A DNA stretch of 64,000 bases, from positions 19,823 to 83,822 of the forward strand of contig JBGSVE010000007.1 in assembly GCA_041753075.1 (NCBI GenBank), read 5' to 3'. The notes under the pieces were generated by a model. It was not told where the DNA came from, did no database searches, and was given only the letters and a program-made list of their open reading frames with translations. This DNA is from Pirellulaceae bacterium (GTDB taxonomy: Bacteria; Planctomycetota; Planctomycetia; Pirellulales; Pirellulaceae). How positions within the stretch are numbered: the first letter of the stretch is position 1; each line of letters starts with the position of its first letter. Made by a program: the position numbers and the translations under genes. Shown here in pieces: positions 9,287 to 26,007 of the stretch.

Positions 9287-10573
9287 ATGACGAATTCGGC
9301 AAACCTTCAAAAAGCTTTTGAGCTTTCGGTTGAACAATATGAATCACTTGGTGTGAACGTTTCACAAGCTCTGAACAAGCTGCGCGAAGTTTCGATTTCG
9401 GTCCAATGTTGGCAAGGCGACGACGTCGCTGGCTTTGAAGGGAACAAAGACGCACTGGGTAACGGGCTTGCGGTGACAGGCAATTATCCTGGCCGAGCAC
9501 GCACGCCCGATGAGCTGCGCAGTGACTTGGAACTCGCCTATTCGCTGATCCCAGGGAAGCAGCGTTTGAATTTGCATGCGCTGTACGGTGAATTCGATGG
9601 CCCCGTTGATCGTGATGCGATCGGCGTCGAACACTTTCAAGGTTGGATAGATTGGGGTCGTGGTCAAGGTGTGAAACTGGATTTCAACCCCAGTTATTTC
9701 TCGCACGAAAAAGCGAGCGACGGATTCACGTTAACGCACGCCGATTCTGGCATCCGTCAATTTTGGATCGATCATGGAATCGCTTGCCGCAAGATTGCCG
9801 CTGCGATCGGCGCGGCTCAAGGCAATCCTTGTATCAACAACTTCTGGGTACCCGACGGATCGAAAGACACGCCGGCCAGCCGAAAGGATCCTCGCCAGCG
9901 GCTTGCCGAATCGCTTGATGAGATCTTTAACGAAGAACTTTCGCCCAGTCACACGCTTGATGCGGTGGAGTGCAAACTGTTTGGCATCGGCAGCGAAAGT
10001 TATGTCGTTGGGTCGCATGAGTTTTATATGGGCTATGCGATTTCCAGAAACAAAATGCTGTGCCTTGATGCTGGACACTTTCATCCAACCGAGATGATTT
10101 CGGACAAGATTTCTGCGGTGCTGATGTATGTGCCGGAGTTGCTGTTGCACGTCAGTCGTGGAGTGCGCTGGGACAGCGACCATGTCGTGACTTACACGGA
10201 CGAATTGCAAGCGATCATGCAAGAGATTGTTCGTGGCGATTATCTCAATCGCGTTCATATTGGACTCGATTTCTTTGACGCCAGTATCAATCGTGTTGCA
10301 GCTTGGGCCATCGGAACTCGCAACGCGTTGAAGGCAGTTCTTGCGGCGTTGTTGGAACCAACCGAAACGCTGCGACAACTTGAGCGTGATGGTGATTACA
10401 CGGCGCGGTTGGCTTTGATGGAAGAACAAAAGTCGATGCCGTTGGGCGCGGTTTGGAATCATTATTGCCAAACGTCCGGCGTTCCCGTCGGAGCCCAGTG
10501 GCTGGAGAAGGTGCGTGACTATGAGAGGAATGTTCAATCTTTGCGCCACAACGAATTGGGTGCGGTGATTTAA
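9287..10573 (+). CDS. rhaA: L-rhamnose isomerase
   Basis: 428-aa ORF collinear with E. coli RhaA as I recall it. Shared segments include [75 protein letters not shown] and [16 protein letters not shown]. Confidence 0.95.
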
Positions 10574-10578
10574 TTTGC

Positions 10579-10642
10579 GAGCGGACGGGCGCTAGCCGCC
10601 GGTTTCGATCGGCAAATACCAGGGGCTAGCGCCCGCCCGCTC
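10579..10642. repeat. REP-like palindromic element, copy A
   Basis: Arms are gagcggacgggcgctagcc (10579-10597) and ggctagcgcccgcccgctc (10624-10642): 19 bp with 1 mismatch and a 26-nt loop. It starts 6 nt after the rhaA stop. The left-arm 25-mer is shared with copies at 19720 and 44786. Confidence 0.6.
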
Positions 10643-10698
10643 ACTAAACCTTCGTGCTGTTCAGCTAATCAAACTTTTAACAATCGGAACCTACTTTC

Positions 10699-12147
10699 AT
10701 GAGTGAAGACAACTCAAATTCAGGCGGAGAATTTGAACGCGAACCCGTTCCCGATTCGGCGTTGCTGGGAGCGGGCAAGTTCTGGGGCATGTATGCCGGC
10801 GAACACGCCGCAGGCACCGAGTTCATGATCGGCCCTTTGTTTTTGGCCGCAGGAGCGAGTTTGCAAAACTTGATCCTAGGCTTGCTGCTGGGCAACTTCC
10901 TGGCAGTTTTGACTTGGCGTTTTCTTGTCGTCCCGATCGCGATGGTAAAACGGTTGACACTGTATTACCAACTTGAGCGCATTGCCGGTGGTTCGCTGGT
11001 CAAGTTCTACAACTTGGTCAACGGTCTGCTATTTTGTTTTCTTGCCGGAGCAATGGTCACCGTGTCCGCGTCGGCAGTCGGCGTACCGTTCGGCATAGCG
11101 TTCGATGTGCCTGAGGCAATGTTTGGACTCAGCAATCTATCGTTCACCGCCTTGGTCGCGATCGTCGGCGTGTTGATCGCCGTGATTGCAGCGGGCGGAT
11201 ATGAGCGTGTTGCTCGAATTGCGAATATCGCGGCACCATGGATGATTGCCGTGTTTGCCGCTTGTGGCATCGTATCGCTGGTGCAAATGGATGTAACGAG
11301 TATGGCCGCTTTCTCGGAAGGCAAGTTTTGGACTGACGCGATCGCATTTGTGCAAGAGAAGAATGGGCCACAGACTTTTGGCTTCTGGCAGATTGTTGTG
11401 TTCGCCTGGCTGTGCAACGGAGCGATGCACTTTGGGATGGCCGACTTGACGATCTTTCGATTCGCTCGCAACAAAGCTTCGGGATGGGCACCTTCGATCG
11501 GCATGTTTCTGGGGCACTACATGGCCTGGATTGCCGCGGCCCTGCTGCTTGCCGCGCTGATCAAAATTCAGCCATCGCTCGCGCTCGGTTCCGATGGCAA
11601 GGTAACCGCGAATCCAGGGCTGCTCGCTTTCCAATCGCTCGGATGGACGGGCATCATTTGTGTTGTGATCGCCGGATGGACGACGGCGAATCCGACGATT
11701 TATCGCGCCGGTTTGGCCTTCCAGGGTGTGTTGCCAAACAGCTCTCGAACCGCCATGACACTCGTCGCGGGCGCGGTGGCGACGATTGCCGGAGCGTTCC
11801 CGAATCTGTCGGCACAGTTGCTCGGTTTCGTCGGGACATACGGAACGATTCTCGGCCCGATGGGAGCCATCATCTTTGTCGACTTCTACTTGATGAGAAA
11901 GTTTGGCCTGCGAGATGAAGACGCGTTTCATCGGAGAACGAAAGTCAATATCGCGGTGTTGATCGCCTGGCTCCTTCCGGTCGCCGTCGGACTCTATCTG
12001 ATCATGGTGCCGACGATTTGGTTTCCTGAAAAGCTCTTCGCCGCTTACGCCGTGATTCCTTGTTGGGTTGCATGCGGAGTGCTCTACCTCGTGCTCAGCA
12101 AGTTCACTCAAAACAAAGTCACAGCAAACAAAGGAAACGTCGAATGA
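10699..12147 (+). CDS. NCS1/purine-cytosine permease-like membrane transporter
   Basis: 482-aa ORF with about 12 hydrophobic segments. The N-terminal pattern (EREPVP...FWGMYAGEHAAGTEFMIGPLF...LLLGNFLAVLTW) resembles CodB/NCS1-type permeases. It lies downstream of rhaA on the same strand. Confidence 0.7.
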   Translation: MSEDNSNSGGEFEREPVPDSALLGAGKFWGMYAGEHAAGTEFMIGPLFLAAGASLQNLILGLLLGNFLAVLTWRFLVVPIAMVKRLTLYYQLERIAGGSLVKFYNLVNGLLFCFLAGAMVTVSASAVGVPFGIAFDVPEAMFGLSNLSFTALVAIVGVLIAVIAAGGYERVARIANIAAPWMIAVFAACGIVSLVQMDVTSMAAFSEGKFWTDAIAFVQEKNGPQTFGFWQIVVFAWLCNGAMHFGMADLTIFRFARNKASGWAPSIGMFLGHYMAWIAAALLLAALIKIQPSLALGSDGKVTANPGLLAFQSLGWTGIICVVIAGWTTANPTIYRAGLAFQGVLPNSSRTAMTLVAGAVATIAGAFPNLSAQLLGFVGTYGTILGPMGAIIFVDFYLMRKFGLRDEDAFHRRTKVNIAVLIAWLLPVAVGLYLIMVPTIWFPEKLFAAYAVIPCWVACGVLYLVLSKFTQNKVTANKGNVE

Positions 12148-12341
12148 ATACGTCTGCAAAAATTGTTTCCCTGATCGCCCTCAGTGCAGTCATCATTCCG
12201 TGTCTTCTGTTCTTCATCGGCATGATTGGACTGGATGCTGTGAAATGGGCGGCGCTGGCTGGCACGATCGGTTGGTTCGTCGCAACGCCGATCTGGATGA
12301 GCCGCGAACTGCCAAAGGATGCAGCGGAAGTGGAGATTTAG
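12144..12341 (+). CDS. Small two-TM membrane protein, hypothetical
   Basis: ATG at 12144 overlaps the permease stop as ATGA. The 65-aa product (MNTSAKIVSLIALSAVIIPCLLFFIG...GTIGWFVATPIWM) has two hydrophobic helices. The longer ORF from 12060 is rejected because it would overlap the permease. Confidence 0.45.
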   Translation: MNTSAKIVSLIALSAVIIPCLLFFIGMIGLDAVKWAALAGTIGWFVATPIWMSRELPKDAAEVEI

Positions 12342-12436
12342 GATGCACTGAACGCGTGGTCCGTCAAATCCCAATGGTTACGGGTCCAAAATTAGCAGAT
12401 GGGCTGTTAGAATTTATCTGCAACGCAGCGTTAGAT

Positions 12437-14275
12437 TCAATTTGAACCAGCGCTATTGAACCCGCGCATCCAGATCTGCTTTTCGAATTGGTTTCCGGCA
12501 GCAATCAAATGGCTCATGCACGCTAGGTAGGCAGCTTCGAGCGAGCAGGTTTTTTCGATGACGCCAGCGCCGCGACTGCGCGATTCGTTGCGCCGTTGGC
12601 TGGCTGAGATCGCGAGTACGTCCAGTAGTTGCGTGGCTGTCGTTTGGTAACTTTGTTGGAGTCGTCGTTGTTCTCGTCGATGGGTTTGGGTGCCCAGGGC
12701 TGGGACCGACATGCGACCGCCCAGCGCGAGCCCGGTCAGACGACGGCGCAGCGAATCAAGGCCATCCGGGGGCGAACCAGGCTGCGGTGTTTCATCGCTT
12801 AAGATCAGTTCGTCGCTCCAGCGTCCAATGCCAGTGAAGTGATGTCGTTGCAGTCGATCCAATCCGATGTTGCACACACTGTCCCACTGCGGCGGCAGGT
12901 CCAGTTCGGGTCGCGCACCTTTTGTCGCGTCGTCATTGATGTTTAAAGTGGTCGGGGCAATCGCGATCAGATCGACTGCACCCGCCGCAGCAAGTCTTAA
13001 GCGACCAAGGCATCGCAGCGACAAGCCTGGGCAACGCGCCAACAGGGCCAAGTTTTCGCGATACGCCAATTGTGCATCATCGATCGCAATTGTCAGCCGC
13101 CAGGGAAGACTGACTCGTTCGACATCGACCAATACACTCGCACCGCGTGGGCCGACAATCACAGCATCGAACGCGACCAAATCCCAACCACCATGACGCT
13201 GCGGCTCGGACATTAACGCACGCTGAAACACTCGCCGAATTTGCTCGTCCAGCGGCAAGCCGAAACGCCCCGCAGCGAGCCGACCGTCGCTCCCACGCGT
13301 CGCGTGCACGGCCCAGCGAGTCGTCTTGCCTTTGCCGAGGCGGCCATCGCCGGACACCTGCAAATTTTGTACAGCAAGCAAACCGCGACACAACGCTTTG
13401 GCGTCCAACGTCACGGTTCCCAGGTCAATGCCACCGCCATACGCCTGCAAAACAAGTTGCCGATCGCCAGGCCGTAGTTCATTGACCGTGAACAAATCTT
13501 CGTCACCCGCCACACTGCCTTGCAGGTAAACGCATACGCCTGCGTAGCCGCTGAGCGTCAGGATCGGCTCGGCACAAATGCCTTCGAGCTTGCGTACGTC
13601 GATGGGATCAAAGCCTCGGCGCGATTGGCCAACGAGCCACTGCGGCGCGCTGGTTTGTGTGTTGATGCGGTGAGCAGTTAACAGCGCACTAGCGAGGTCA
13701 TCCCTTAACGCGCCTGCATCGGATGTATCGCGATTGGCCCGCAATCGTCCGCTGCCTTCGACAATTCGCAAGAGCGTATTGCCCAGCGCAACCAATCCGC
13801 ACTCGCGACACTGATGCGCCGCTCGCAGGATACTCGATTGCACCAGCAACCCCGCACCGCTTGCGCCGACGCGAAGCAGTGCCGCGACCGCAGCTTGGGC
13901 CAATCGCGCCGCCGTTTGCATTTCTTCAGTGATTGTGGACGTGGCTGGGGCTGCCTCAGTCTCCTGACTCTGATCCGCAGAATCATCGTCCGTTGCCGTC
14001 GCCAAGATGTTGATGCACGCGACGACGTGAAAACATTTTGGTGTCAACAAGCAACTGCATTGCAATTGCTCGGAGGAAACAATCACGCCGCCCTCGCTGC
14101 GTAACTCAACGGTTTCTTCGCCGGCTGCGATCGACCATCGGTCTGCGTTGAAAACCCATTGCCAACGATCGGCAACCACGGGTTCGGCATCGAGTCGTTT
14201 GCGAACACGGCCGGGCATTGAATCGATCAGTTCGGCCAGTAAGATCGCGCTGATTCGCGGTCGCGGTACGTTCAT
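12437..14275 (-). CDS. SWIM zinc-finger protein (YehQ-like)
   Basis: ATG at 14273-14275 overlaps the stop of the upstream vWA gene as ATGA. The SWIM signature CxCx(n)CxH is present as LQCSCLLTPKCFHVVAC. The remaining ~500 aa are unrecognised. Confidence 0.8.
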   Translation of the reverse strand: MNVPRPRISAILLAELIDSMPGRVRKRLDAEPVVADRWQWVFNADRWSIAAGEETVELRSEGGVIVSSEQLQCSCLLTPKCFHVVACINILATATDDDSADQSQETEAAPATSTITEEMQTAARLAQAAVAALLRVGASGAGLLVQSSILRAAHQCRECGLVALGNTLLRIVEGSGRLRANRDTSDAGALRDDLASALLTAHRINTQTSAPQWLVGQSRRGFDPIDVRKLEGICAEPILTLSGYAGVCVYLQGSVAGDEDLFTVNELRPGDRQLVLQAYGGGIDLGTVTLDAKALCRGLLAVQNLQVSGDGRLGKGKTTRWAVHATRGSDGRLAAGRFGLPLDEQIRRVFQRALMSEPQRHGGWDLVAFDAVIVGPRGASVLVDVERVSLPWRLTIAIDDAQLAYRENLALLARCPGLSLRCLGRLRLAAAGAVDLIAIAPTTLNINDDATKGARPELDLPPQWDSVCNIGLDRLQRHHFTGIGRWSDELILSDETPQPGSPPDGLDSLRRRLTGLALGGRMSVPALGTQTHRREQRRLQQSYQTTATQLLDVLAISASQRRNESRSRGAGVIEKTCSLEAAYLACMSHLIAAGNQFEKQIWMRGFNSAGSN

Positions 14276-17200
14276 GATAAGAGGGTTCCTTGCGGTGAAT
14301 TCGCTGTCTGTCCAGCTTGTCCGCGAATTTGATCGCCGACCCAATCGGCCAATCGTTCGGGGCTGACCGCGGCCACCGGCATGCCCGCGGCCGCGACCAT
14401 TTGTGCGTAGCCTTGATGAAACCGCGCCGTGCCTGTGTCATCCAGCGCGGCCAGCCCGACGCACTTCGCACCGGACTGCGCAATCGCGCGAACTTCGGCG
14501 AGCATCTCGCCCACCGAAACTCCCTCCTCAAAATCCGACACCAACACGACGATCGATCGCGACGGCACTTTCAATCGGGACCTGGCGGCACCTAGTCCCA
14601 AACCAATATGCGTCCCGCCGCCAACCTGCACCTCCAACAGCAATGCCAACGGATCAGTCACATGCTCGCTCAGATCAATCACCTCGGTACTGAACGCCAA
14701 GAACCGAACCGATAGCGCCGGCAACTCCGCAAAAATTGCCGCGCACAACGCAGAATAAACAACCGATGTGGTCATCGATCCCGAGACATCGACCACAAAC
14801 GTTAAATGCCAATCCATCTCGCGTCGCGATTGCGTGTTGAATAGCAATGACTTGGCCACGATCGCTGGCCGGCCATCGTCGCGTCGATAGGCATTGATCA
14901 AGTTTTCGCGAATCGTTCGTGGCAAGTTCAAGCGGCGCGAACGTCGCCGCGTCGGCCTCGGCGATGACAATCCGCTCATCGCGGGGCGAAGGCGGACGGC
15001 CAGGCGTTTGGCCAGTTGTTCTGTGATCCGCTTGGCCAATCGCCTCATCCGCTCGGCTCGAACTTCGGCCAAGCCGCCGGCGAGCGACAACACCTGTTGC
15101 AACAATTCGATCGACGGCGTGACCGCATCGGGATCAAGCAAGTCCAAGGCAACTTGATTTCCCCTGCCCGCCGACTCGCCCAACACTTCTTGACAAATGT
15201 CGGCACCAAACAATGCTTCCAAATCATCCGCCCACTGGGCTGTCGTCGGCATCGGTGCTTCGGTGCCGCCGGATTGGCGGTTGGCCAGACCGCCTTGCGA
15301 GCCTTCGCCGCGTCCGCGACCGAACAATTGATCTAAACTACTCGCTGCACCGGAGCTTGCTTGCCGATTCTCCGGCGGCAGTCCAAGTATCATTCGCCAA
15401 CGATCCGCGAGCGTGATTCCATGCGCGGGATCTGTCGCGGCGATCTCATCGGCGGACGAGTCGTCAGTTATTTTTTCTTCGCTTGCCGGCGCGTTGGCTA
15501 AATCAAATTGAAAATTCGGAAAGATCGCCAGCACAGCTTGGCGTCCCGCCGAATCGGCCTCGCGCCGCATCGCGACCAACTCCGTCACATCACTGAAGCC
15601 ATCGGAAGCAATCGCGGCGAATGCGGAACCACGCTCGTGGTAGGATTGCAAACGAGCTTCCAGCAGTCGTATTCGGTTGGCGGGTGAAAATTTATGAAAC
15701 GCACCGCGCAGCGACGGTAGTCGTTGTAAAAACGAATCGTCGTCGGCGGTGCGAATCCGCGACTCCAATCCGTCTAACCAAACCATGTCGCCTTGCATCA
15801 TTGCCAAGAGCACGTGTACCGATCCCGCTAACGCATTCCTCAGGCGACTTCGCGACTGAGTATCCACGGCGGCATCGAACCAACCGCCGAGCAATTCCGC
15901 GAACTGTTCCGCCGTCTGTTTTTGCAGCACGCACAGCATTCCTGCGGCCGCTCCGCGCATCAAATCGCTGCCTCGCCCCAGCGTCCGCTGGCACCAATGA
16001 ACCAATCGCAATTGACCCGCGTCGAGCAGCGCAATCGCCGTCTTGTTGCCATTATCGAGATCGCATTCCAGCACTTCGCGCAAGTCACCGTTGAACCAAT
16101 GGACCAGATCGCTGACACCGATCACATCGTTGTCATCGTGCGAGCCTTCGAGTCCTTCCAAGCGATCCAAGCAGGCGCGCAACAGCGCCGCCATTTGCAA
16201 AGAAACATTCGTATCGCGAAACACCGCGAGTATCGGCGGATACGAATTGGCTTCGTCGCGCGGCAGACCCGGAATGTGTCCAGCGGAGATGCGTCCAAGT
16301 ATCGTGGCCGCAGCGACCAACTCGACCAACCCGCCGGTTCTCAGCAATGTCTGGTCAAGTGTTTGCAAGCTCCGGTGTACGAATTGGTTTAAGCCACACT
16401 GCGTCGCGATCTCCAATTGCTGGACAATCGACGCAGGTGGTGTCTGGTCACTCGTCACACTTCGCAAGATCCCTTCGACCACCTGCGGCAGCGCCACGCC
16501 AAAGCGCGACACCGCTTCAATGGTCGCCGAGGTCCCTTGGTGCCAAGCGACTTTCCAGCGCTCGGCAAGGTTCTCGCGTTGACCTTGTTCGATTGAATCG
16601 ACACGCGTCGCATAAGGGATTGAGGCCGCGCACAATCGTCTCAACACCACGGCTTTGGCGCGTTCACGCGGCGATCGCAGCACATCCAATCGGACCTCGC
16701 GCGGTTCGTCGCCAAGGGTCCCTTGCGTGGGCAAATGCAACGATTGTAGCAGCGTTTCGAGCGACACGGCCAAACCGCAACGCGGCACACGCCCGGACAC
16801 CGCTCCTTGGCGATTACCAATCAAAACATGCGCCGACGCTTTAGAAACCTCGCGCGCCCGGCCGTGCAATTCGCCTTGCACCAAGCAGGACTGAATCGAC
16901 TCGATCAATTCGCTTCTGCCCGCCGCGGCAAGTCCCCGCAATCGCGCCAGATCGCGCATCATTCGCATGATCTCGCTGGCGTCCGGCGTTCCGGCGACAT
17001 GACCGCGATGACGCATTTGGCGGCAGATGGCGACGATGATCTCACCCGCTGCGGCATCCATGGCGGTGAGGCTGTCGGCGGTGACCATTCGTTGGTGCCA
17101 AACCGGATCCAGAATCCCAGCCGGATAGCCGCTGCGTTCATCAAGTTGTTCAAAGCTGTAAGGCACCAGTGAGACGCCGACCGCCTCGGACGATGCGGAA

Positions 17201-17904
17201 AGTTCGGCCAGCAGTTTTTGATCATTCGTCGCTTCACGTTCAACAACTTCGCGAACCAGCGCCGCGGCGTGGAACGAACCGATTACGGCGGCGCTATGCG
17301 GCGGTGCGGCGCGAATGCACTGGCGCATCGCAGCCTCGCGCAATCGATCTCTTGGCGAAACGATCGGCGAGCTGTGGCGGACGGCCCAGCCGAACATCAG
17401 CGCCGCTTGGCGAGTTGCGTCGGGATCAGCGAGCATTGCCGGTGATTCGACCAAGCGTTCCCACAATTGACCCGTGTCACGAGAACTTGTTCGTCGCAGC
17501 AGTTCGTCCAACAGCAGGCAAGGATCCGCAAGTTCTACAGTGTCCACGACCAAGTTCGCCTTCGCACTCACCGATAGATCACAAGCGACAACCGGCACAC
17601 TGTGCTTAAACGCCCACTTGATGGCGACCAGTTCAGGAGAAAAATCGGCGAGCGGATAGAACGCCAAATCGCCACTCGCGTTGGCTGCAGAAATCGCAAT
17701 CGGAGCGACCGTGTCCTGGTCCGCCAAATACTCAAGCCATGGATTGAAATCCGCAGGCATCTCGACCAACAATTGATCCGGCTTGAATGAATCGAGCATT
17801 GCCCGAATCGTTCGCGCGATCGCCGCGGAATGATGACGAACGCCAATCAGCAGCGGCGTTCGACATTCGCACAGCGGTGCGATATGATCGGAAGGGTCGT
17901 TCAT
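14272..17904 (-). CDS. Fusion protein: TraB/TIKI-like N-terminus, large DUF5682-like middle region and C-terminal vWA (MIDAS) domain (YehM+YehP-like)
   Basis: Start taken at the ATG at 17902-17904; the ORF extends to a TTG at 17949. The N-terminus has LIGVRHHS..(x15)..PDQLLVEMP. The C-terminus has a CoxE-like vWA domain with the MIDAS motif FVVDVSGSM, plus GGGTHIG and VVLVSDFEEG. Confidence 0.8.
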   Translation of the reverse strand: MNDPSDHIAPLCECRTPLLIGVRHHSAAIARTIRAMLDSFKPDQLLVEMPADFNPWLEYLADQDTVAPIAISAANASGDLAFYPLADFSPELVAIKWAFKHSVPVVACDLSVSAKANLVVDTVELADPCLLLDELLRRTSSRDTGQLWERLVESPAMLADPDATRQAALMFGWAVRHSSPIVSPRDRLREAAMRQCIRAAPPHSAAVIGSFHAAALVREVVEREATNDQKLLAELSASSEAVGVSLVPYSFEQLDERSGYPAGILDPVWHQRMVTADSLTAMDAAAGEIIVAICRQMRHRGHVAGTPDASEIMRMMRDLARLRGLAAAGRSELIESIQSCLVQGELHGRAREVSKASAHVLIGNRQGAVSGRVPRCGLAVSLETLLQSLHLPTQGTLGDEPREVRLDVLRSPRERAKAVVLRRLCAASIPYATRVDSIEQGQRENLAERWKVAWHQGTSATIEAVSRFGVALPQVVEGILRSVTSDQTPPASIVQQLEIATQCGLNQFVHRSLQTLDQTLLRTGGLVELVAAATILGRISAGHIPGLPRDEANSYPPILAVFRDTNVSLQMAALLRACLDRLEGLEGSHDDNDVIGVSDLVHWFNGDLREVLECDLDNGNKTAIALLDAGQLRLVHWCQRTLGRGSDLMRGAAAGMLCVLQKQTAEQFAELLGGWFDAAVDTQSRSRLRNALAGSVHVLLAMMQGDMVWLDGLESRIRTADDDSFLQRLPSLRGAFHKFSPANRIRLLEARLQSYHERGSAFAAIASDGFSDVTELVAMRREADSAGRQAVLAIFPNFQFDLANAPASEEKITDDSSADEIAATDPAHGITLADRWRMILGLPPENRQASSGAASSLDQLFGRGRGEGSQGGLANRQSGGTEAPMPTTAQWADDLEALFGADICQEVLGESAGRGNQVALDLLDPDAVTPSIELLQQVLSLAGGLAEVRAERMRRLAKRITEQLAKRLAVRLRPAMSGLSSPRPTRRRSRRLNLPRTIRENLINAYRRDDGRPAIVAKSLLFNTQSRREMDWHLTFVVDVSGSMTTSVVYSALCAAIFAELPALSVRFLAFSTEVIDLSEHVTDPLALLLEVQVGGGTHIGLGLGAARSRLKVPSRSIVVLVSDFEEGVSVGEMLAEVRAIAQSGAKCVGLAALDDTGTARFHQGYAQMVAAAGMPVAAVSPERLADWVGDQIRGQAGQTANSPQGTLLS

Positions 17905-17936
17905 CAAGTAAATCGTATGGCAACGAGGGGGTTGGG

Positions 17937-18170
17937 ATGTCAGTAGCAAATCAAGCCAAGGAGGTTTACGAAGCGGATTTGCGCCAACGATTGGAAGCCG
18001 AGCATTTCGGTGAGTTTGTTGCGATCGAACCCGATTCGCGTGATTATTTTATTGCGATCACTTTCATTGATGCCGCGATGGCCGCGAAGAAATGTCACCC
18101 GACCAAGAAATCTTTTGTGTTGCGAGTTTGTCACGAAGCGGCAGTGCATCTCGGAGCGGCCACTAAGTGA
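17937..18170 (+). CDS. Small protein, DUF5678-like partner of a retropepsin-like protease
   Basis: 77-aa product from the ATG at 17937, preceded by a GAGG-like Shine-Dalgarno sequence. The pattern FGEFVAIEPDSRDYFIA...AAMAAKKCHP resembles the small proteins usually encoded upstream of AF_0612-type aspartic proteases. It overlaps the next gene by 4 nt. Confidence 0.5.
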   Translation: MSVANQAKEVYEADLRQRLEAEHFGEFVAIEPDSRDYFIAITFIDAAMAAKKCHPTKKSFVLRVCHEAAVHLGAATK

Positions 18171-18544
18171 TCGGCCGCGTTGACGACAACAAGCGCGCTT
18201 TGTTACCAGTTCAAGTTCGTGCGAAGTTCGCGAAGCAATCATTTTCGGTTGATGCGTGGATTGACACCGCGTTCGATGGACACTTTGTTTTTGCGTTGGC
18301 GTTGATCGATCAGCTTGGTCTTGAGACGCTGGTAGAAACCGAGGCTATTTTTGCGGACGGCAGTAAGGTGACTCTGGAAACATTTGTCGCGTACCTCGAT
18401 TGGTTTGGAGCTGTGATTCCGGTTCAGGTTGTTGCGAACGATAGGCAATACCCACTTCTTGGAACAGCGCTGCTTGAAAATTGTCGCTTGACGATTGACA
18501 CCAACAAATTGGTTGAGTTGAATTTAGTCGAATTGGCGCACTAA
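18167..18544 (+). CDS. Retropepsin-like (clan AA) aspartic protease, AF_0612-like family
   Basis: 125-aa ORF with a GTG start overlapping the previous stop. The active-site-like motif is WIDTAFDG (DTA variant of DTG). FADGSKV, YLDWFG and the flap/dimer motif PLLGTALLENCRLTID follow. Its stop codon overlaps the stop of the convergent ATPase gene. Confidence 0.7.
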   Translation: MIGRVDDNKRALLPVQVRAKFAKQSFSVDAWIDTAFDGHFVFALALIDQLGLETLVETEAIFADGSKVTLETFVAYLDWFGAVIPVQVVANDRQYPLLGTALLENCRLTIDTNKLVELNLVELAH

Positions 18545-19692
18545 CCCTCCAAGTCTCCTCGCAATTCAGCGAGTCTTTTCCAAAGAAATGCACCCGTATC
18601 GGCGCGACGCCGCACCGCTCCGTCCCAATAGCCGAGCAAACGCTCGCGATCCTTTGAATCATCCTTCATCACGACGCCTAGTAGATGTCCGGGCAATCGC
18701 GAGACAGGGTCAAAGCCCGACGGAAAGAACACGCCCTCACGATGAATCGCCGTCGTGATTGCGACTGCCTCGGCGGTGCTCATCACTGTGCTGGGTTGCT
18801 GAACTTGCCAACCCTCGGACGTACGGCCGGATCTCAAGTCGCGGAAAACAGTGACCAACAATTCCACCAGCGCTTTGTCAACCGCCGGCGCAGGACCGCC
18901 GGCCGACAAGATCGCTGTGGCGCGGCGCGAGACCAATTCGACTTCACGATCGGCGTCGGCGATCGGTGCGATCGTCTCAAAGTTGAAGCGTCGTTTCAGT
19001 GCCGCTGACATCTCCGACACGCCGCGATCACGCAGGTTTGCCGTGGCGATGACGTTGAACCCCGGCGAAGCAAAAACGCTCGAATCATCACCGCTCAATT
19101 CAGGAATCATCATCCGTCGCTCGCTCAAGATTGAAATCAATCCGTCCTGCACTTCGGGTAAACAGCGTGTGACTTCTTCGAACCGCACGAGCTTGCCGCT
19201 GTTCATCGCTTGCATCACCGGTGAGGCAACGAGTGCGTCAGGCGTTGGCCCGCGATCAAGCAACATCGCGTAATTCCAGCCGTAGCGAATTTGATCTTCC
19301 GTGGTGCCGGCGGTGCCTTGAATCGTTAGCGCCGACGTACCGCTAATCGCGACGGCAAGCAGTTCGCCCAGCATCGATTTCGCCGTTCCCGGTTCGCCAA
19401 CGAGCAACAAGCCACGTTCGCCCGCCAAGGTGACGACGCAGCGTTGAATGATGTCGCGCGGACCGAGAAATTTTTCCTCGATAACCATTGATTTTGTTTT
19501 CGACGGACCGATCCGTTGGCCATCGGTGCCGCAAATAAAGTCGATGATCGCTTGTGGAGAAAGCAACCAACCGGCCGGACGATGGGCGGTGTCGATTTCG
19601 GCAAGCAGTTGCAATTCGTCACGATGCCGCAGCTCCGCCGGAGGATTTTGCATGGTGGCGGTAGCTGCAGTCGATGCAGATTTCTTTGGCAT
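18541..19692 (-). CDS. MoxR/AAA_5-type AAA+ ATPase (YehL-like)
   Basis: Walker A is LLLVGEPGTAKS and the Walker B-like motif is KLVRFEEVTRC. LPEVQDGLISILSERRMMIPE, FNVIATANLRDRGVSEMSAALKRRF and an arginine-finger region follow. Start set at the ATG at 19690-19692, because the longer ORF to 19998 would overlap the upstream gene. Confidence 0.85.
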   Translation of the reverse strand: MPKKSASTAATATMQNPPAELRHRDELQLLAEIDTAHRPAGWLLSPQAIIDFICGTDGQRIGPSKTKSMVIEEKFLGPRDIIQRCVVTLAGERGLLLVGEPGTAKSMLGELLAVAISGTSALTIQGTAGTTEDQIRYGWNYAMLLDRGPTPDALVASPVMQAMNSGKLVRFEEVTRCLPEVQDGLISILSERRMMIPELSGDDSSVFASPGFNVIATANLRDRGVSEMSAALKRRFNFETIAPIADADREVELVSRRATAILSAGGPAPAVDKALVELLVTVFRDLRSGRTSEGWQVQQPSTVMSTAEAVAITTAIHREGVFFPSGFDPVSRLPGHLLGVVMKDDSKDRERLLGYWDGAVRRRADTGAFLWKRLAELRGDLEG

Positions 19693-19719
19693 AGTTGACG
19701 ATGATTGGGGATCGAGTGT

Positions 19720-19783
19720 GAGCGGATCGGCGCTAGCTGCCGGTTCCGAGTGCGAACGACCGGTGGCTAGCGCCAATCCGCTC
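19720..19783. repeat. REP-like palindromic element, copy B (inside the operon)
   Basis: Arms are gagcggatcggcgctagctgccggt (19720-19744) and accggtggctagcgccaatccgctc (19759-19783): 25 bp with 3 mismatches and a 14-nt loop. The right arm overlaps the stop codon (19782-19784) of the 1683-aa gene. Confidence 0.6.
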
Positions 19784-22700
19784 ACTGCTTGCGTTTTTTC
19801 TTGGTGATGGTGTCTTCGTAACGCGGGATGTCGCCGTGTTCGATCCTTGACCATGTTGATTGGAAGTGGCCAGCGATTGAACCGTGGAGCACGATTCGGT
19901 CCGCGCTGCCGCCGCGCAGACGATCGGTATTGGCGTGTCCGAACAACGGCAACTTCCATGATTCGATCGGCAAGTTCGGTTGCTTGAGCGGTTCCCATCC
20001 GCCGGGCAAGAAGATGTCTCGACCGGCGCGTTCACGTTTGGCTTCGACCAAGTGCCCGGCGGCGACCAACTCGCTGGCCGCGGCGGCGTAGTCCTTCGTC
20101 GCCCACTGGTTCCATCGCTTCACGTTGGCCGCCGTGGGATCGTACAGTGCCAGAACCTGTAGATACAAAGCGGCCGCTGATTCGCTGACCTTCAACTTCT
20201 TAGCACAAGCCTTGACAATTTCCGGCACTGACAACCTCGGGTCTTGTTCCCAGCTTCCTGCGGGCAACGTGCTACTGCGGATCTCGCTGGCCAGTCGCGT
20301 CATTGCATCACTGCGCATTAGCATCACGCCTTGGGCCGCAAGATTATGATGCACGCCTGGTTCCGAATAATCGAATGTTGCGTTGACCGCTGCGGACAAC
20401 TTGGCAAACGCTTTATCATCCGTCAATTGCGCCGAGCGAAACAGCATTCGGATTGCCGGAGGTATTGTAGCGACGACAACCAACCCGTTATCGCCGCGAT
20501 ACAAACCATCAGCCGCTAACTCCAGTTTGGTGATCGTCGTGCTGAGCCTGATGATGGTATCGTCAAGCTTCAACTCTTGATCGAGGGGCGCGGTAAAATT
20601 GGCCCCGAAAGGAAATAATGTTGACGGTTCATCTAGGAACTTGCGAACTTCGTCGACCACATCCGGAATCGCAACGCGAGCTTCGGCACCGGTGGGTAAT
20701 TCGTAATTGATCATGGCGAGCGATAGAAGCACATCGCCCAATAGCGTCTCAGGCACAAACCGCGGCGTGGGATCGTATTTCCTGTCGATCATGTGGTAGA
20801 CCGCAGGCCGACCGGTCGGGACCAATGACATGGTTCGCCGCTGCAAAAACTCGGACGCCTGCGGGTCGGCGAGTAGGCTGGCAATGTGCGGTTGGTGATC
20901 GCCCAAATCAAGTTTCTTCAGCAGCTCTGCGGGCAACGAAATCGTCTTCTTCAAAAACTGTGTCCACTTGGCAATCATCTGGTCAAACGCACGATCACGT
21001 CCATCGAGCATCGCACCACCCGGATTATTTCGCACGCCAATCGAACCGACGGTTGACGCTAATTCGATGGCGTTTAGCTCGGCGATCGCGGTTTGGATAT
21101 CTTTGACTTTCCACGAGTAGAAATCACGAAGCTCTTTGGTCAGCTTCTCTTGGCCGTAGTTAACGGTGCGCAGGTTGCTCATCCACGCCAGCGCCGGTGT
21201 GATCGGATGAACACCGATTTTTGCAGCGGCGTCAGCCAATTGTTCCGTTGACGGCAGCGGCAACGCCTGCACCGTTTTCACTCCTTTGATGAATGACAAC
21301 AAGCTGTTGCGGTTCCAGCCTGGGTCAAGCACGGTTGTTGAATCAACGGTCAAACCTTTTGGTGGTTTTGGTTTCCCGTTGGCTGAATAACCGATTACAG
21401 TCAGGACGTTTTCGTAATAGCTGTGTTGCACAATCGCAACGAATCGATTGTGGCCTTCGACAAAAGTGATCGGATGGGCGTCCGCTCGCGCGGCCAGTGA
21501 ATCGGGCTTCGGTGTTTGGTCTGCGCCTAACGCCACATGATATAGGTGTATCTTCTCGCTGAGCTGTAGCAGGCCGGAATCAGCCAAACAACTCAGCGCA
21601 TCAAGCCACGGGCCCCCGAGCCGCTGGGGTATCGATTCCCCAGCAGACTCGTTCACACCAAGTGACCAAAAACATTTCCAGACTAACGATGGTAAATCGT
21701 CGAGCAGTCCAAGCCAAAAGGTTTGGCAAGCAGGGATTTCATCGTTATCGCAGCCGCTCAGGAATTTCCCCACCGCCATCACATTGGCCGAAATCGAACG
21801 CTCTTCGCTAGGCTGGTAATAACAAATCGGCGACCGTTTCTGTTGCGTCATAAACGTGAAACCCGCGTCGGCTCGCTGGGCGTCGAACGTCGGCAATGCG
21901 GCTTGCGGCGTGTTGGGATCAGGCAACACTCGCGTCAACAGATTTTGCAACGAAATCGATTCTTCAGCGGCCAAGCGTGCCAACCGCGCAATGCCCGCAA
22001 TCAATCGCGGCGGTGCTTGGGGCAGTATTCGCGTGGCAACCGTGGCGGCAATCGTGCGCTCGGGGTCAGGGTTGGCCGGATCATCTTTCCTTTTGTATGC
22101 CTGGTGATTCGTCAGGCCAGCTTCCAGCAACTCGCTCGCTTGCTTGAGCGTAAGTTTTCGCAGCTTCTTCGATGAGTCGAGGCAACGTGGTTGCATTAAG
22201 TTCAAGAAGATAGTGGGAAGCACTGCGGGTTGGCCGAAAGCGTACTTCTGGTGGCCATCATAAGACCCGAAAGCGATCCCGGTTTCTGAATCAACGAGCT
22301 TGCCACCGTCATGCAAAATCCAAAATGAGTTTGACCCCGGCTTGTCGATCATCGCCTCGGCGAAGCGGTATCGAGACGTGGTTTGCTGGTCCGCCGTGAC
22401 CACACTTTTGCGACCATCAATCCCCTGGTACTCAATTGCCGCATCACGACGGCGAACCACACGCCAACCGATCAAACCAGCCTTACTGCCCAATGGCGAT
22501 TGGCCCGCTTGAGTTGGTTGTGGCATCAGATAGCTGGACCCATAGACAATTGTTGCACCGGAGGGCAGCGACTCCTCGAAAAACGGCGGGACGCTATCGC
22601 GCAATTCTTTGCCGGTGCGCGGATCAAGCTCCGCAATCGCCGCCGGCGGAATTGTCGTCTCGTTGTGATTCGACCAATGAACCGCGTCTTCCTTCACACG

Positions 22701-24833
22701 CCAAAACCGAGCGCCATCATGGAACCACTGCCGTGTTGGCCTTGGCCACTGGGCATCGCCGGTGCGGACAGCCCGCTCGCCGCAAAAGTATTCGTCGTCG
22801 CCCAACGGGACAATTTGCGATCGATGCGAACCGTAATAATGGCCTTCGTCATGCTGGGTGGATTTGCCCGGTTCGCTGAGCCAACGTACGAACGTGTGCC
22901 AACCCAATGCCGAATCACGAACCATCATGAGCACATCGTCGCCGAGCGGAACCAGGTAGTTCAGAGATTCGGTCGGCGACAATTTTACCTCGCGCGGCGG
23001 GCAACTACTGGCCGGATCAATCACATGCACGAAGCCGTCGAGCACATAAGCCAATCGCGGAAACGATGGAAAAATCAATTGCTCATGCCGTCGACTCACC
23101 TTCGGCAACGGCTTTTCATCGGCGGCCTTGTCCAATTCCGGCCAACCGTATTCGTCGAACACACCGGCGATTAGCGTGCGGTGCAGAATCGTTGCGAAGT
23201 CGATGCTCCGCAATCGTTTGACAAGCTCAGGAAACTCGACCAACACGCGCGGGCGAATGCAGTTTTGCAATTCATTGGCGGCCTGCTCGACGTCCACCAA
23301 CCCACCGACTTCGAACGCCTTCAATTGTTTGTCGAGGTATTGCCACCAGGCATCACGCACGACCGGATGTCCCGCCGCCGCTTCATCAAACGCGCGTCGA
23401 GGGGCCACGTCGCGAGACCACGACGAACCCTTACCCGGACTGTCTCCCGCGAACGAAACCAAGCTTGGGATCGCAACCTGCAGCGCTGCGATAAACTGTG
23501 GCTGGGCCGCGACGTGCTTCAATTGCGAGTTGCGCCGCGGGTGATCGACATCACTTCGCAGCCAACCCGCAAAGTCGAGTTCAAACCACGGGGGAATCGG
23601 CACCTCAAGTCCCAGATCGAGGTACGTTTCCAGCACATCAACGTCAATGCTGCGACCGCGATGAACCGAGGTGAATGTCATCGGTTTGGCTTCCGCTTTC
23701 AACACCTCGGCCATCGATTCCAACAACTCGAACACGCGTTTGTTCGGCGAGCTTTCGACTGCGGCAATCGCGCCGATCCAATGAGCTCGTCCGCCGGGCA
23801 ATTCGACTTCCTTGGGCCATTGGTCCAGCGGTTGCGAAATCATCGGCAACACGCCCCACTCATCGAGCAGATCCAGCCATTGCCAAACGGGACTGTCGGT
23901 GCGGTAACTATATTGAGGGTTGGTATGGACGAGTAACCAAGCGGCAAAAGTTCGCTCACGTTTGGCGATGCGCGCGGCGGCTTGCTTAACCGACTTCCAA
24001 AACTGGATCGACGCACGGGCCATCGCGGGTGAGGTGATGATCGCCTCGAGCACCGACTCCAGTTCAACGATCGGATCAAGCTTCGCCGCCTTAGCCATGC
24101 GGTTAAGGTCGATTGCGACGTTGGTTACCGGTGGCATACCGCCGAGCGTGCGACGAATGACTAAATCCTTGAACGTCTCGTAAGCATCGGCGGGCTTGAA
24201 TTGTTTCTCGAGGTCTTTGGCATAATCGGACAACGCCTTGCCCGACAAACAACCGCTGAGTGCAAATTCAAGCACCGCATCACGGCGATGCTCGCGATCA
24301 ACCTTCAACGCATGAACCCGCTCGGCTTCGAGTGCCTTGTTGAGGCCGCGACCGGCGTAGGTTTGGTTGCCCAAGTCTTTGAACGTCCGCGCGACCTGCT
24401 CCCAAAACGGCGGCAACAAATCACGCACCGACTTGTTCAACTCGTCGGCCATCTCGGTGTATAAATCCCACGCGGAACCTGGTTTCGACGCAGCCTTGCG
24501 GGCCGTCGATTTCATTCGTTTGACGAGGTCCAATGCGTACTTGGCATGCTGGGGTTGATGCACCAGCGACCAGTGTGCGAAATCGAGCGCGGTGCGCGTC
24601 TGCATCGCAATCGGTTCGCTGATCGCGGTGCCTTGAAGTCCCAGAAATTCCATCGCCAAGTCTTCAGCCGGCACCAACCGATCGGCGCTGAGCGTGATGA
24701 TGACGCGATTCCCCAGGACCGCGGCAGCGTAAGTTCGGGCGACGATCGTTTCCGTCGTCTTGGGATCGCATTTCGATTTTATGGCCACCAAGCCGCCGGC
24801 AGCGAGCTGAGATTCGACAAAGTCTTTGCTCAT
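19782..24833 (-). CDS. Giant (1683 aa) cytoplasmic protein of unknown function, operon member
   Basis: Uninterrupted 5052-nt ORF whose ATG overlaps the stop of the upstream DUF4132-like gene as ATGA (24830-24833). It has no signal peptide, TM segment or catalytic motif that I recognise, and a Lys-rich C-terminal tail (TKKKRKQ). Confidence 0.8.
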   Translation of the reverse strand: MSKDFVESQLAAGGLVAIKSKCDPKTTETIVARTYAAAVLGNRVIITLSADRLVPAEDLAMEFLGLQGTAISEPIAMQTRTALDFAHWSLVHQPQHAKYALDLVKRMKSTARKAASKPGSAWDLYTEMADELNKSVRDLLPPFWEQVARTFKDLGNQTYAGRGLNKALEAERVHALKVDREHRRDAVLEFALSGCLSGKALSDYAKDLEKQFKPADAYETFKDLVIRRTLGGMPPVTNVAIDLNRMAKAAKLDPIVELESVLEAIITSPAMARASIQFWKSVKQAAARIAKRERTFAAWLLVHTNPQYSYRTDSPVWQWLDLLDEWGVLPMISQPLDQWPKEVELPGGRAHWIGAIAAVESSPNKRVFELLESMAEVLKAEAKPMTFTSVHRGRSIDVDVLETYLDLGLEVPIPPWFELDFAGWLRSDVDHPRRNSQLKHVAAQPQFIAALQVAIPSLVSFAGDSPGKGSSWSRDVAPRRAFDEAAAGHPVVRDAWWQYLDKQLKAFEVGGLVDVEQAANELQNCIRPRVLVEFPELVKRLRSIDFATILHRTLIAGVFDEYGWPELDKAADEKPLPKVSRRHEQLIFPSFPRLAYVLDGFVHVIDPASSCPPREVKLSPTESLNYLVPLGDDVLMMVRDSALGWHTFVRWLSEPGKSTQHDEGHYYGSHRSQIVPLGDDEYFCGERAVRTGDAQWPRPTRQWFHDGARFWRVKEDAVHWSNHNETTIPPAAIAELDPRTGKELRDSVPPFFEESLPSGATIVYGSSYLMPQPTQAGQSPLGSKAGLIGWRVVRRRDAAIEYQGIDGRKSVVTADQQTTSRYRFAEAMIDKPGSNSFWILHDGGKLVDSETGIAFGSYDGHQKYAFGQPAVLPTIFLNLMQPRCLDSSKKLRKLTLKQASELLEAGLTNHQAYKRKDDPANPDPERTIAATVATRILPQAPPRLIAGIARLARLAAEESISLQNLLTRVLPDPNTPQAALPTFDAQRADAGFTFMTQQKRSPICYYQPSEERSISANVMAVGKFLSGCDNDEIPACQTFWLGLLDDLPSLVWKCFWSLGVNESAGESIPQRLGGPWLDALSCLADSGLLQLSEKIHLYHVALGADQTPKPDSLAARADAHPITFVEGHNRFVAIVQHSYYENVLTVIGYSANGKPKPPKGLTVDSTTVLDPGWNRNSLLSFIKGVKTVQALPLPSTEQLADAAAKIGVHPITPALAWMSNLRTVNYGQEKLTKELRDFYSWKVKDIQTAIAELNAIELASTVGSIGVRNNPGGAMLDGRDRAFDQMIAKWTQFLKKTISLPAELLKKLDLGDHQPHIASLLADPQASEFLQRRTMSLVPTGRPAVYHMIDRKYDPTPRFVPETLLGDVLLSLAMINYELPTGAEARVAIPDVVDEVRKFLDEPSTLFPFGANFTAPLDQELKLDDTIIRLSTTITKLELAADGLYRGDNGLVVVATIPPAIRMLFRSAQLTDDKAFAKLSAAVNATFDYSEPGVHHNLAAQGVMLMRSDAMTRLASEIRSSTLPAGSWEQDPRLSVPEIVKACAKKLKVSESAAALYLQVLALYDPTAANVKRWNQWATKDYAAAASELVAAGHLVEAKRERAGRDIFLPGGWEPLKQPNLPIESWKLPLFGHANTDRLRGGSADRIVLHGSIAGHFQSTWSRIEHGDIPRYEDTITKKKRKQ

Positions 24834-25735
24834 GATTCCGGCGACTCCTGCTTTTCAACCTTGCGCTTGGCGTAGATCGCGCTGGCCATGCGAACCCCTT
24901 CGCTGAACGTTACCGCACCGACATCACGAATCGTGACCGCCTGTTGACTCTTGTTGACAAAAATCAATTCACCAGTCTCCGTTTCCGCTTCGGGATACTC
25001 GCCGCCGATGTAATAGCGCGCTTCCAGCGGCAGGATGCCTTCCCAAACTTTGCAGGTTGCATAGCCACCACGAACGGGATACCCAAGCCGACGACAAACA
25101 CCAATGGCAAAGTTCAGTTGTTCGAACACGCCACCTTGGTAATCACGAATCGACGTCAACGCAGATTGTTCTTCGGTCGGTTGATAGACGGGGCGGTACA
25201 ATTGTTCGATTGGTTGCACAGCCTTGATGTCACCGGCCAATTCACGCAGGTCGTCAAGTTCGGCAATCAGGATCGGATGCACAACGGCGATGGCGGCGCT
25301 CTTGAGCCACTTCGATTCGCCATCAAGGTCAACGATACCGATGCCTTTTTTTGCGTCCACATCGCGGAGCAATCCGACATGCTCAACGTCGAGCTTGCCG
25401 GCCGCGTTGGCCCCGGCGATCACCATGTTTTCCAGCGCCGCGCGCCAAGCGTCGTCGGGCCAAGTGTTGACAATGACCTCGCGGGGAACGACCAGAGACC
25501 GGAGCATCCAATGTTCGACGGTGTGTAGGCAATGCAGCGCATGGTCATTCATCCACGCGGCGAGGGCTTGCAGTTGATCGAAGACCGGTTCCTCTTTGAG
25601 CCATGACGGAACCGAGGCGAGCCGTTTGCCTTTGGCGTTCAAGCAAACAACTTTGCCGTCGTCGAGACCGAGCTGATGTTCTTTCGGAGCATCGAGCCAC
25701 GAAGTGGGCATTGAGGCCGGTGCATGAACAGCCAA
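24830..25735 (-). CDS. DUF4132-like protein (MolR/YehI C-terminal domain-like)
   Basis: 301-aa ORF. The TTG start at 25735 is preceded by GGGAG; an alternative ATG lies at 25711. The pattern W..D..W.....N.V and then VHPILIAELDDLRELAGDIKAVQPIEQLYRPVY matches my recollection of the DUF4132 core (HP..l....W......qPF.QL.R). Confidence 0.6.
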   Translation of the reverse strand: MAVHAPASMPTSWLDAPKEHQLGLDDGKVVCLNAKGKRLASVPSWLKEEPVFDQLQALAAWMNDHALHCLHTVEHWMLRSLVVPREVIVNTWPDDAWRAALENMVIAGANAAGKLDVEHVGLLRDVDAKKGIGIVDLDGESKWLKSAAIAVVHPILIAELDDLRELAGDIKAVQPIEQLYRPVYQPTEEQSALTSIRDYQGGVFEQLNFAIGVCRRLGYPVRGGYATCKVWEGILPLEARYYIGGEYPEAETETGELIFVNKSQQAVTIRDVGAVTFSEGVRMASAIYAKRKVEKQESPES

Positions 25736-26007
25736 AGGTTGCTCCCTATCGTTGAACGGTTAGAGAAAAGTATGTCGTAGCTTAAAGCAGCAGGATAGCG
25801 ATTTGAACTGTGCTGCGGGAAAAATCTTTGCCACGCCTGATTCGCTAATTCATCTCAAATTCTCGCGGTTTCTTCGCCAATTCAGCGGCGGCAACTTAAC
25901 GTCAAGTTAACGCTGCGCTGACCGACTATTCGCTGTTTCATTTTGGGCGAGCACTACTTTATCGCCTGCACAAACTGGGCGTCAGCTTCAAAAAAAGGAA
26001 TGTTTCA

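Follow-up and report, generated by a model that had tools for sequence, protein, structure and literature searches.

Pairs of a MoxR-type AAA+ ATPase and a vWA protein, such as RavA-ViaA, CoxD-CoxE, NorQ-NorD and CbbQ-CbbO, mature a known enzyme, and each pair as a rule acts on a single client encoded nearby. Genes for MoxR and vWA proteins are also present in the yeh locus of Escherichia coli K-12, which comprises yehF (WGR), yehH, yehI (DUF4132, 1210 amino acids (aa)), yehK, yehL (MoxR), yehM (DUF5682), yehP (vWA) and yehQ (SWIM). Cassettes of this Yeh type, with MoxR, vWA, SWIM and DUF4132 components, occur in E. coli K-12 and in many phyla, and no published function was found for them. MoxR-vWA ternary conflict systems of the VMAP, iSTAND and beta-propeller types were described by Kaur et al. 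(2020, PMC7159879), where SWIM, WGR, DUF4132 and YehL are not mentioned. The locus reported here lies on a stretch of 64,000 nucleotides (nt), hereafter the window, from a Pirellulaceae bacterium (assembly GCA_041753075.1, contig JBGSVE010000007.1, positions 19,823 to 83,822). On the minus strand of the window an operon encodes, in this order, a DUF4132 protein, a protein of 1683 aa called the giant in this text, a MoxR ATPase, a DUF5682-vWA(CoxE) fusion and a SWIM protein. The giant is very probably a dedicated subunit of this MoxR-vWA system. A more specific reading, for which the chances are judged to be about even, is that in a five-gene Yeh-type (YehL) MoxR-vWA machine it is the subunit that acts as scaffold or sensor, has no catalytic role and is probably directed to nucleic acid.

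The operon shares with E. coli yehI/molR(yehH) and yehL-yehM-yehP-yehQ (b2118-b2122) the MoxR AAA_5, DUF5682, CoxE-type vWA and SWIM families, a DUF4132 module, a large accessory protein found in tandem (yehH/yehI in E. coli, arrays of giants here) and a regulatory link to DNA damage, seen here in actinobacterial loci. It differs in that DUF4132 is a separate protein of 301 aa, whereas YehI carries DUF4132 within its own polypeptide, in the fusion of DUF5682 with vWA, and in the giant itself, an extra gene whose product of 1683 aa has neither WGR nor DUF4132. The DUF4132 protein of the window is colinear with YehI 915-1209 only, the C-terminal 300 residues of that protein, and since DUF4132 precedes the giant in gene order, the arrangement amounts to more than a YehI-like gene cut in two.

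The first-pass annotation, made from the sequence without database searches, took the giant to have no E. coli yeh counterpart, and it was right: the K-12 yeh locus holds no comparable gene and no profile-profile similarity to YehI was found. Alignment with hhalign gave a probability of 0.2% against YehI, and of 0.06% (E 0.73) against an 11-sequence YehI alignment, a shallow profile (Neff 2.1) that could miss distant homology. In both runs giant residues 1524-1593 (20055-20264) aligned weakly with YehI 663-733 (L087), at a probability below 1%, which may be chance or may reflect a shared module just upstream of DUF4132. WGR (PF05406) gave no Pfam match in the giant, and the N-terminal half aligned with the WGR protein YehF at a hhalign probability of 0.7%. 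Homology to YehI, to YehF and to the DUF5691 partner of another variant described below was rejected, each at a probability below 1%. Lacking DUF4132, WGR and profile similarity, the giant is, as judged from these alignments, not a member of the YehI/MolR family. The system as a whole appears to be a distinct variant of the uncharacterised Yeh type, with an uncatalogued scaffold in the position of the YehI body.

The first-pass annotation had described the giant as the product of an uninterrupted open reading frame (ORF) coupled to the DUF4132 gene, without signal peptide, transmembrane helix, nucleotide-binding loop or catalytic motif, rich in W, G and Y in its central part and ending in a basic tail. 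Every element of this description was correct, and only the strand, minus, had to be added. The frame is continuous in the ORF listing and its translation, and the ATG of the giant (24831-24833) overlaps the TGA of the DUF4132 gene as ATGA. Walker A, GxxGxG, HExxH and CxxC motifs were not found in the giant, which has 12 Cys and no metal motif. On the Kyte-Doolittle scale its most hydrophobic stretch of 19 residues averages 1.39, short of the customary transmembrane threshold of about 1.6, and its N-terminus does not resemble a signal peptide. Residues 640-900 contain 3.1% W, 9.2% G and 3.4% Y, against 2.3, 5.9 and 2.4% overall, and the tail, TKKKRKQ, was modelled as disordered. Searches of Pfam (E<0.01), NCBIfam, PADLOC and PDB sequences with the single sequence (phmmer for PDB) and with a 50-sequence profile gave no match. 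The frame can be taken as a real gene, not a chance frame, because full-length relatives are present in at least three phyla. By the same searches the family is an undescribed and widespread one, absent from Pfam, NCBIfam, PADLOC and the sequences of PDB.

A word-seeded search returned 159 giant homologues, nearly all of 1570-1765 aa and aligned from end to end, from Planctomycetota (Pirellulaceae, Gimesia, Isosphaeraceae), Myxococcota and Actinomycetota (Streptomyces and others). Protein identity among the closest orthologues is 66-76%; several homologues are named 'DNA-binding protein' at NCBI and most are hypothetical. Scanning one genome per species for a sequence pattern brought up at least 484 giant-encoding loci. 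Exhaustive search with a hidden Markov model profile of the C-terminal half yielded 1,090, 926 and 696 clusters (at 50% identity) at E values of 1e-3, 1e-10 and 1e-30, respectively. Among the best 150 clusters the match was C-terminal in full-length proteins (about 1,550-1,750 aa), and shorter entries were mostly matched over their whole length. Length and architecture of the family are rigid to the extent that these alignments reveal them. Within a set of 61 genomes (60 relatives and the window's own) only five carry the giant, four of 13 within the genus, and a further ten relatives have DUF5682 without the giant. The earlier proposal that the giant gives the system of this lineage its specificity needs a qualification: the giant is not specific to planctomycetes, and it defines a subtype of the system over several phyla. 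On this evidence the giant is a marker of one subtype of the Yeh-type system, with a patchy distribution.

Genomic linkage was counted in 80 fetched loci, using only those with enough flanking sequence. The DUF4132 gene lies directly upstream of the giant on the same strand in 73 of 76 loci, MoxR directly downstream in 65 of 70, and the DUF5682-vWA fusion follows in 61 of 64; the SWIM protein is kept at the end of the operon in most of the fetched loci. Annotated loci of Streptomyces, Gimesia and a deltaproteobacterial metagenome-assembled genome (MAG) have the identical five-gene order. The 4-nt overlap between DUF4132 stop and giant start (ATGA or GTGA) is retained in 58 of 69 adjacent pairs, which argues for co-translation and a fixed stoichiometry. 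All five giant-carrying genomes among the 61 also have DUF5682, and in all six genomes with broken adjacency a DUF5682 ORF, mostly of fusion size, is encoded elsewhere. At genome level giant and DUF5682 thus co-occur in 11 of 11 cases (five relatives and six exception genomes). The first-pass annotation had allowed that the giant might occur in relatives independently of the MoxR and vWA genes; the adjacency counts and the genome-level co-occurrence speak for the opposite. This operonic linkage with AAA_5 MoxR, DUF5682, CoxE-type vWA, SWIM protein and DUF4132 identifies the giant as a component of a Yeh-type system.

Some loci depart from the common order. At L029 (acidobacterial MAG, 7377-11092) and L034 (planctomycete MAG, 8108-11816) the DUF4132-giant pair is followed by unrelated genes, including a two-component system and cytochrome oxidase, with a DUF5682 ORF on another contig, and at L070 the motor genes are convergent. 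Tandem giants were found at L039 (Bradymonadales, 9048-24712), where one DUF4132 gene precedes three giants of 1555, 1645 and 1550 aa, and at L022 (8871-23113), with a giant, DUF4132, an N-terminal-only giant of 1024 aa, a giant of 1684 aa and then MoxR. Locus L089 (6491-13883), from a genome of the same taxonomic order and one of the ten with DUF5682 but no giant, encodes in succession a 446-aa ORF, DUF5691 (E 1e-104), MoxR, DUF5682 and vWA_CoxE, without DUF4132 or giant. The 446-aa ORF is possibly a SWIM protein, and by its gene content the locus is another Yeh-type variant in which DUF5691 replaces DUF4132 and giant.

Two AlphaFold2 (AF2) models, computed with 73-row alignments cut from the fetched loci, cover residues 1-910 (m1c54f9980e83) and 891-1683 (m078dddbdeb69) of the giant. 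Their pLDDT (predicted local distance difference test) values are 90.6 and 90.8 and their pTM (predicted TM-score) values 0.81 and 0.83, respectively. The giant had been called domain-less, which is true of catalogued domains, but the models show at least seven folded modules (Table 1). In the middle these are helical (861-1091), beta-sheet (1095-1168), helical (1175-1322) and mixed alpha/beta (1334-1490). The conserved C-terminal module is helical at 1498-1591, with a winged-helix-like unit last, followed at 1592-1672 by a small alpha/beta unit ending in GDxPxYEE. Foldseek against PDB matched the solenoid to designed armadillo proteins, importin-alpha and Raptor (E 6e-4 to 2e-2), and the propeller to clathrin terminal domain, BamB and WD40 structures (E 3e-3 to 2e-2, probability up to 0.95), of which the best are seven-bladed, such as the clathrin terminal domain. 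The earlier guess of a beta-propeller in the centre is supported by these matches and by the all-beta domain modelled at 587-860. The fold matches of the N-terminal half are generic ARM/HEAT and propeller scaffolds only, and neither sequence, profile nor fold revealed the homology to a well-characterised family that the first-pass annotation had considered as an alternative.

Column conservation is highest at residues 81-280 (0.6-0.73) and 1541-1620 (0.62-0.73) and lowest (0.21-0.28) at 961-1020, 1101-1120, 1341-1360 and 1481-1500. Overall the giant is best conserved in residues 85-330 and most variable in the middle, 861-1490 (0.21-0.5). Positions without any variation are concentrated in the head and the first repeats of the solenoid, in the propeller (W651, W711, E735, P749, G807) and, towards the C-terminus, in the conserved module (A1554, Y1557, Q1559, W1577, R1600, R1602, R1605, F1608, P1610, W1613, E1624, W1626, K1627). 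Tandem paralogues are 44-77% identical at their ends, and in the more divergent pairs only 21-38% in the modules of 861-1490. Conserved ends around a variable middle would be expected of a subunit that docks by its ends and recognises a variable target by its middle. Of the roles first proposed, sensor, scaffold or effector, the first two are reasonable for a non-catalytic protein with conserved ends, variable middle and tandem paralogues, and no evidence was found for an enzymatic effector.

The hints of nucleic-acid binding come from the C-terminus and from some of the DUF4132 partners. Helices 1551-1562, 1568-1575 and 1579-1591 are followed in the AF2 model by two short strands flanking an invariant RxRxxR (pLDDT 92-99). 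This segment, LKVSESAAALYLQVLALYDPTAANVKRWNQWATKDYAAAASELVAAGHLVEAKRERAGRDIFLPGGW, matches the helix-helix-helix-wing spacing of TrmB/MarR-type winged helices, with the invariant R1600, R1602 and R1605 located in the wing. As judged from the modelled topology, the unit is a putative winged helix. In most homologues a few K/R residues form a short tail after the conserved GDxPxYEE end; 33 of 73 have at least four K/R in the last 12 residues and most others two or three. Myxobacterial DUF4132 partners carry K/A/P-rich, histone-H1-like N-terminal extensions of 30-190 aa, which are absent from the copy in the window.

A link to DNA damage was found in the promoters of actinobacterial loci. The PafBC promoter consensus of mycobacteria, known from chromatin immunoprecipitation sequencing and cryo-electron microscopy, spans 22 nt, tGTCgg(N10)tA(N3)T (PMC8635444, PMC6789036). 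Of 34 actinobacterial loci (L002, L035-L085), 31 have a PafBC motif on the coding strand in the 120 nt that precede the DUF4132 gene, where 0.003 per 120-nt window would be expected from the rest of the loci. Where its start was printed, it lies 23-81 nt upstream of the gene, mostly 23-37 nt. When both strands of about 0.8 Mb of fetched loci, 1.6 million positions in all, were scanned for the exact motif TGTCRGTG-N8-TANNNT, all ten matches lay upstream of the DUF4132 gene. By this motif these actinobacterial operons are predicted to stand behind a PafBC (RecA-NDp) DNA-damage promoter. Actinobacterial (TCGAAC-N4-GTTCGA), E. coli and Gram-positive LexA boxes showed no meaningful enrichment upstream of the operons, and outside the actinobacterial loci the regions upstream of them contained no box of the PafBC, E. 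coli LexA or Gram-positive LexA type. For the planctomycete of the window the link to DNA damage would hold by orthology only.

From these observations the following mode of action is proposed for a scaffold or sensor. The giant and the DUF4132 protein would form a complex of about 1:1, and the conserved N- and C-terminal modules would dock on DUF4132, the metal ion-dependent adhesion site (MIDAS) of the vWA domain, MoxR and the SWIM protein. The basic tail and the winged helix with its Arg-rich wing would make contact with nucleic acid, and the propeller and fast-diverging middle could bind a client or signal. What the giant holds would then be remodelled or processed by the MoxR-vWA motor, possibly with cleavage by DUF5682. 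The giant would functionally replace the WGR-solenoid part of E. coli YehI/MolR, to which it is not homologous, and the process served is most likely tied to DNA damage.

Several points weigh against this proposal. All helix-turn-helix (HTH) family models run against the homologues stayed below threshold (TrmB E 0.084, HTH_67 E 0.011, HTH_36 E 0.25), and the helix that would serve for recognition (TKDYAAAASELVA) is without basic character. Contacts with proteins are another use of winged helices, and binding of DNA by the C-terminal end is probable from fold and composition. Foldseek gave nothing significant for the C-terminal half in PDB (best CodY, E 0.45, rejected as a match) or BFVD (best E 0.02); since neither database holds a match, this half as modelled is an uncatalogued arrangement, and a catalytic site may be hidden in the unmatched middle. 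The PafBC evidence is actinobacterial only, and by eye no damage-type operator was identified upstream of the operon in the window. Given L029 and L034, the DUF4132-giant pair may also act alone. The local copy of the operon, split by an opposite-strand insert of about 600 nt, may not be fully functional. Finally, a literature search on DUF4132, DUF5682, the yeh genes and the combination of MoxR, vWA, SWIM and WGR found no functional study.

The alternative that survives best, although unlikely, is that the giant is the sensor or 'third component' of an anti-phage or conflict system of the MoxR-vWA ternary type, in which propeller and middle sense an invader and trigger MoxR-vWA and a putative TraB/TIKI-like DUF5682 hydrolase. 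The systems of Kaur et al. (PMC7159879) likewise have a large third component with repeat or propeller modules of sensor-like character, and a patchy distribution favouring complex bacteria. The giant is similarly patchy (5/61 genomes, 4/13 in the genus), its tandem arrays diverge in the middle, and it occurs, among the matches listed, in distant phyla with large genomes and complex lifestyles, as do the NTP-dependent conflict systems of that study. DNA-damage promoters could serve the sensing of prophage induction too, and the MoxR of the window matches the bpMoxR model (PF20030) weakly. That match, at 19.6 bits, stays below the cut-off of 27, however, and no family of PADLOC-DB v2 matched any of the five operon proteins at E<0.01. 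The giant has no recognisable effector, adaptor or death domain (Pfam, NCBIfam, PADLOC), and its propeller is recognised by fold only. SWIM, WGR, DUF4132 and YehL are missing from PMC7159879, and the giant is not among the third components documented for those systems. Around the operon in the window, and likewise in L002 and L003, lie housekeeping or metabolic genes and no defence islands, and in published examples (PMC6789036 among them) PafBC, LexA and DdrO control DNA-repair genes, with no defence system among these.

A bolder version of the scaffold or sensor reading, which must be regarded as quite unlikely in its full form, takes the cassette for a hitherto undescribed DNA-damage-induced, ATP-driven surveillance or repair machine. 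The giant, on DNA, would recognise with its propeller and variable middle a damaged or protein-blocked site and present it to the motor and the putative TraB/TIKI-like DUF5682 hydrolase. Its anchors on DNA would be the winged helix and the basic tail, to which myxobacteria would add the H1-like tail of the DUF4132 protein. Targets could be, for example, DNA-protein crosslinks, stalled complexes or foreign DNA ends. The site would be passed to the motor and DUF5682 for extraction or cleavage, and tandem giants would widen the range of lesions or targets.

It is improbable that the giant is the client, not a working part, of a dedicated MoxR-vWA chaperone pair that folds it, assembles it or loads a cofactor, as happens with the substrates of CoxD/CoxE, NorQ/NorD and CbbQ/CbbO. 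As in those systems and in RavA-ViaA, an AAA_5 MoxR gene stands beside a vWA gene of CoxE type (PF05762) with a large neighbour as likely partner or client, one neighbouring client is the usual case, and no other product of the operon approaches the giant in size. A handle for MIDAS or pore could be provided by the acidic YEE, conserved beside the disordered tail. Unlike the known clients, the giant has no enzyme features and offers nothing to mature, with no cofactor, catalytic or metal motif and no CxxC among its 12 Cys, and three more partners (DUF4132, DUF5682, SWIM) are fixed. Other variants combine the same motor with different partners (YehI, DUF5691), which fits exchangeable adaptors better, and arrays of paralogues argue against a single client.

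Very improbable is a one-component transcription regulator of unusual size, whose solenoid and propeller would sense a ligand and whose winged helix would control the operon or other genes. The high conservation of the C-terminal winged-helix-like module and the NCBI records named 'DNA-binding protein' agree with it. A regulator would not be expected to have a start codon that overlaps the DUF4132 stop in most loci, or to be encoded nearly always with an ATPase module; the recognition helix lacks basic character, no HTH model exceeds its threshold, and actinobacterial regulation appears to be PafBC-based. A planctomycete membrane-coat-like (protocoatomer-type) protein shaping endomembranes, suggested by the planctomycete origin of the window and by the combination of solenoid and propeller, which as ARM/HEAT and propeller folds recalls Raptor and clathrin heavy chain (E 6e-4 for armadillo to 3e-3 for clathrin and Raptor), was discarded as extremely improbable because of its domain order and taxonomy: the solenoid comes before the propeller, opposite to the order in coat proteins, the family is, among the matches listed, equally common in Actinomycetota and Myxococcota and not restricted to the PVC (Planctomycetes-Verrucomicrobia-Chlamydiae) group, the operon is fixed with MoxR, vWA and SWIM, 56 of 61 planctomycete genomes lack the giant, and the resemblance, confined to the fold, with 8-13% identity and TM-scores between 0.1 and 0.3, says nothing for common descent or function.

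The remaining features of the operon in the window are as follows (Table 1). The MoxR translation contains the Walker A sequence GEPGTAKS. Between giant stop and MoxR start lies a gap of 89 nt (19693-19781); the same two genes overlap by 4 nt in L004. The MoxR and DUF5682-vWA genes, which abut in the Streptomyces and Gimesia loci, are about 600 nt apart in the window, with two plus-strand ORFs (17787-18170 and 18167-18544) filling the space, and this insert may uncouple the two halves of the operon. The SWIM protein gave nothing in Pfam at E<0.01. The intergenic region upstream of the operon also serves a divergent plus-strand gene of 2683 aa. A direct repeat CGTTAA[C/G]TTG was observed there at 25830-25860 (minus-strand reading CGTTAACTTGACGTTAAGTTG) and could be a candidate operator. 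A search by eye for an operator common to this region and those upstream of recA and lexA in the same genome gave nothing convincing, the regions being too short for statistics.

Table 1. Coordinates of the operon, of the modules of the giant and of related features (window positions unless a locus is named).
Feature	Position	Strand	Basis
Intergenic region, presumed operon promoter	25736..26007	minus	ORF map; sequence inspected by eye
Stand-alone DUF4132 protein, 301 aa, TTG start	24830..25735	minus	PF13569 E 7.6e-26, profile positions 1-179 of 179
Giant (P0001), 1683 aa	19782..24833, stop codon included	minus	One uninterrupted 1683-codon frame
Giant: small alpha/beta head, residues 1-80	24594..24833	minus	AF2, pLDDT 80-92
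Giant: ARM/HEAT-like alpha-solenoid, residues 85-575	23109..24581	minus	Helical repeat in AF2; Foldseek
Giant: beta-propeller, residues 587-860, probably seven blades	22254..23075	minus	About 26-28 strands in AF2; Foldseek
Giant: variable middle, residues 861-1490, helical, beta-sheet and mixed modules	20364..22253	minus	AF2, pLDDT about 91
Giant: conserved C-terminal module, residues 1498-1672	19818..20342	minus	AF2 and invariant residues
Giant: disordered basic tail, residues 1673-1683 (EDTITKKKRKQ)	19785..19817	minus	pLDDT 43-56
YehL-type MoxR AAA+ ATPase, 383 aa, ATG at 19692	18541..19692	minus	PF07728 AAA_5 E 2e-34
DUF5682-vWA(CoxE) fusion, equivalent to YehM+YehP; start TTG 17949 or ATG 17904	14272..17949	minus	PF18934 E 1.3e-130, PF05762 E 1.4e-49
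YehQ-like protein, 635 aa, SWIM-type CxC...CxH (QCSCLLTPKCFHVV), start codon uncertain	12437..14344	minus	Aligned to both YehQ SWIM motifs
H1-like DUF4132 extensions	L004 4637-4830; L045 8874-9120; L049 8538-9130; L074 6555-6735; L079 979-1495; L081 5154-5334		

The findings define a second, structurally distinct Yeh architecture, in which DUF4132 is a stand-alone protein and an unrelated scaffold of 1,600-1,700 aa replaces the body of YehI/MolR. This scaffold's family comprises about 1,000 sequence clusters, without an entry in Pfam, NCBIfam, PADLOC or PDB. The confident models supply module boundaries for constructs, and the pattern of conserved ends and variable middle points to the likely sites of partner docking and target recognition. 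The PafBC promoter of 31 among 34 actinobacterial operons is the third independent link between a DUF4132 system and DNA damage, after LexA in E. coli and DdrO in Deinococcus, and it makes the function of the yeh genes directly testable in the genetically tractable Streptomyces.

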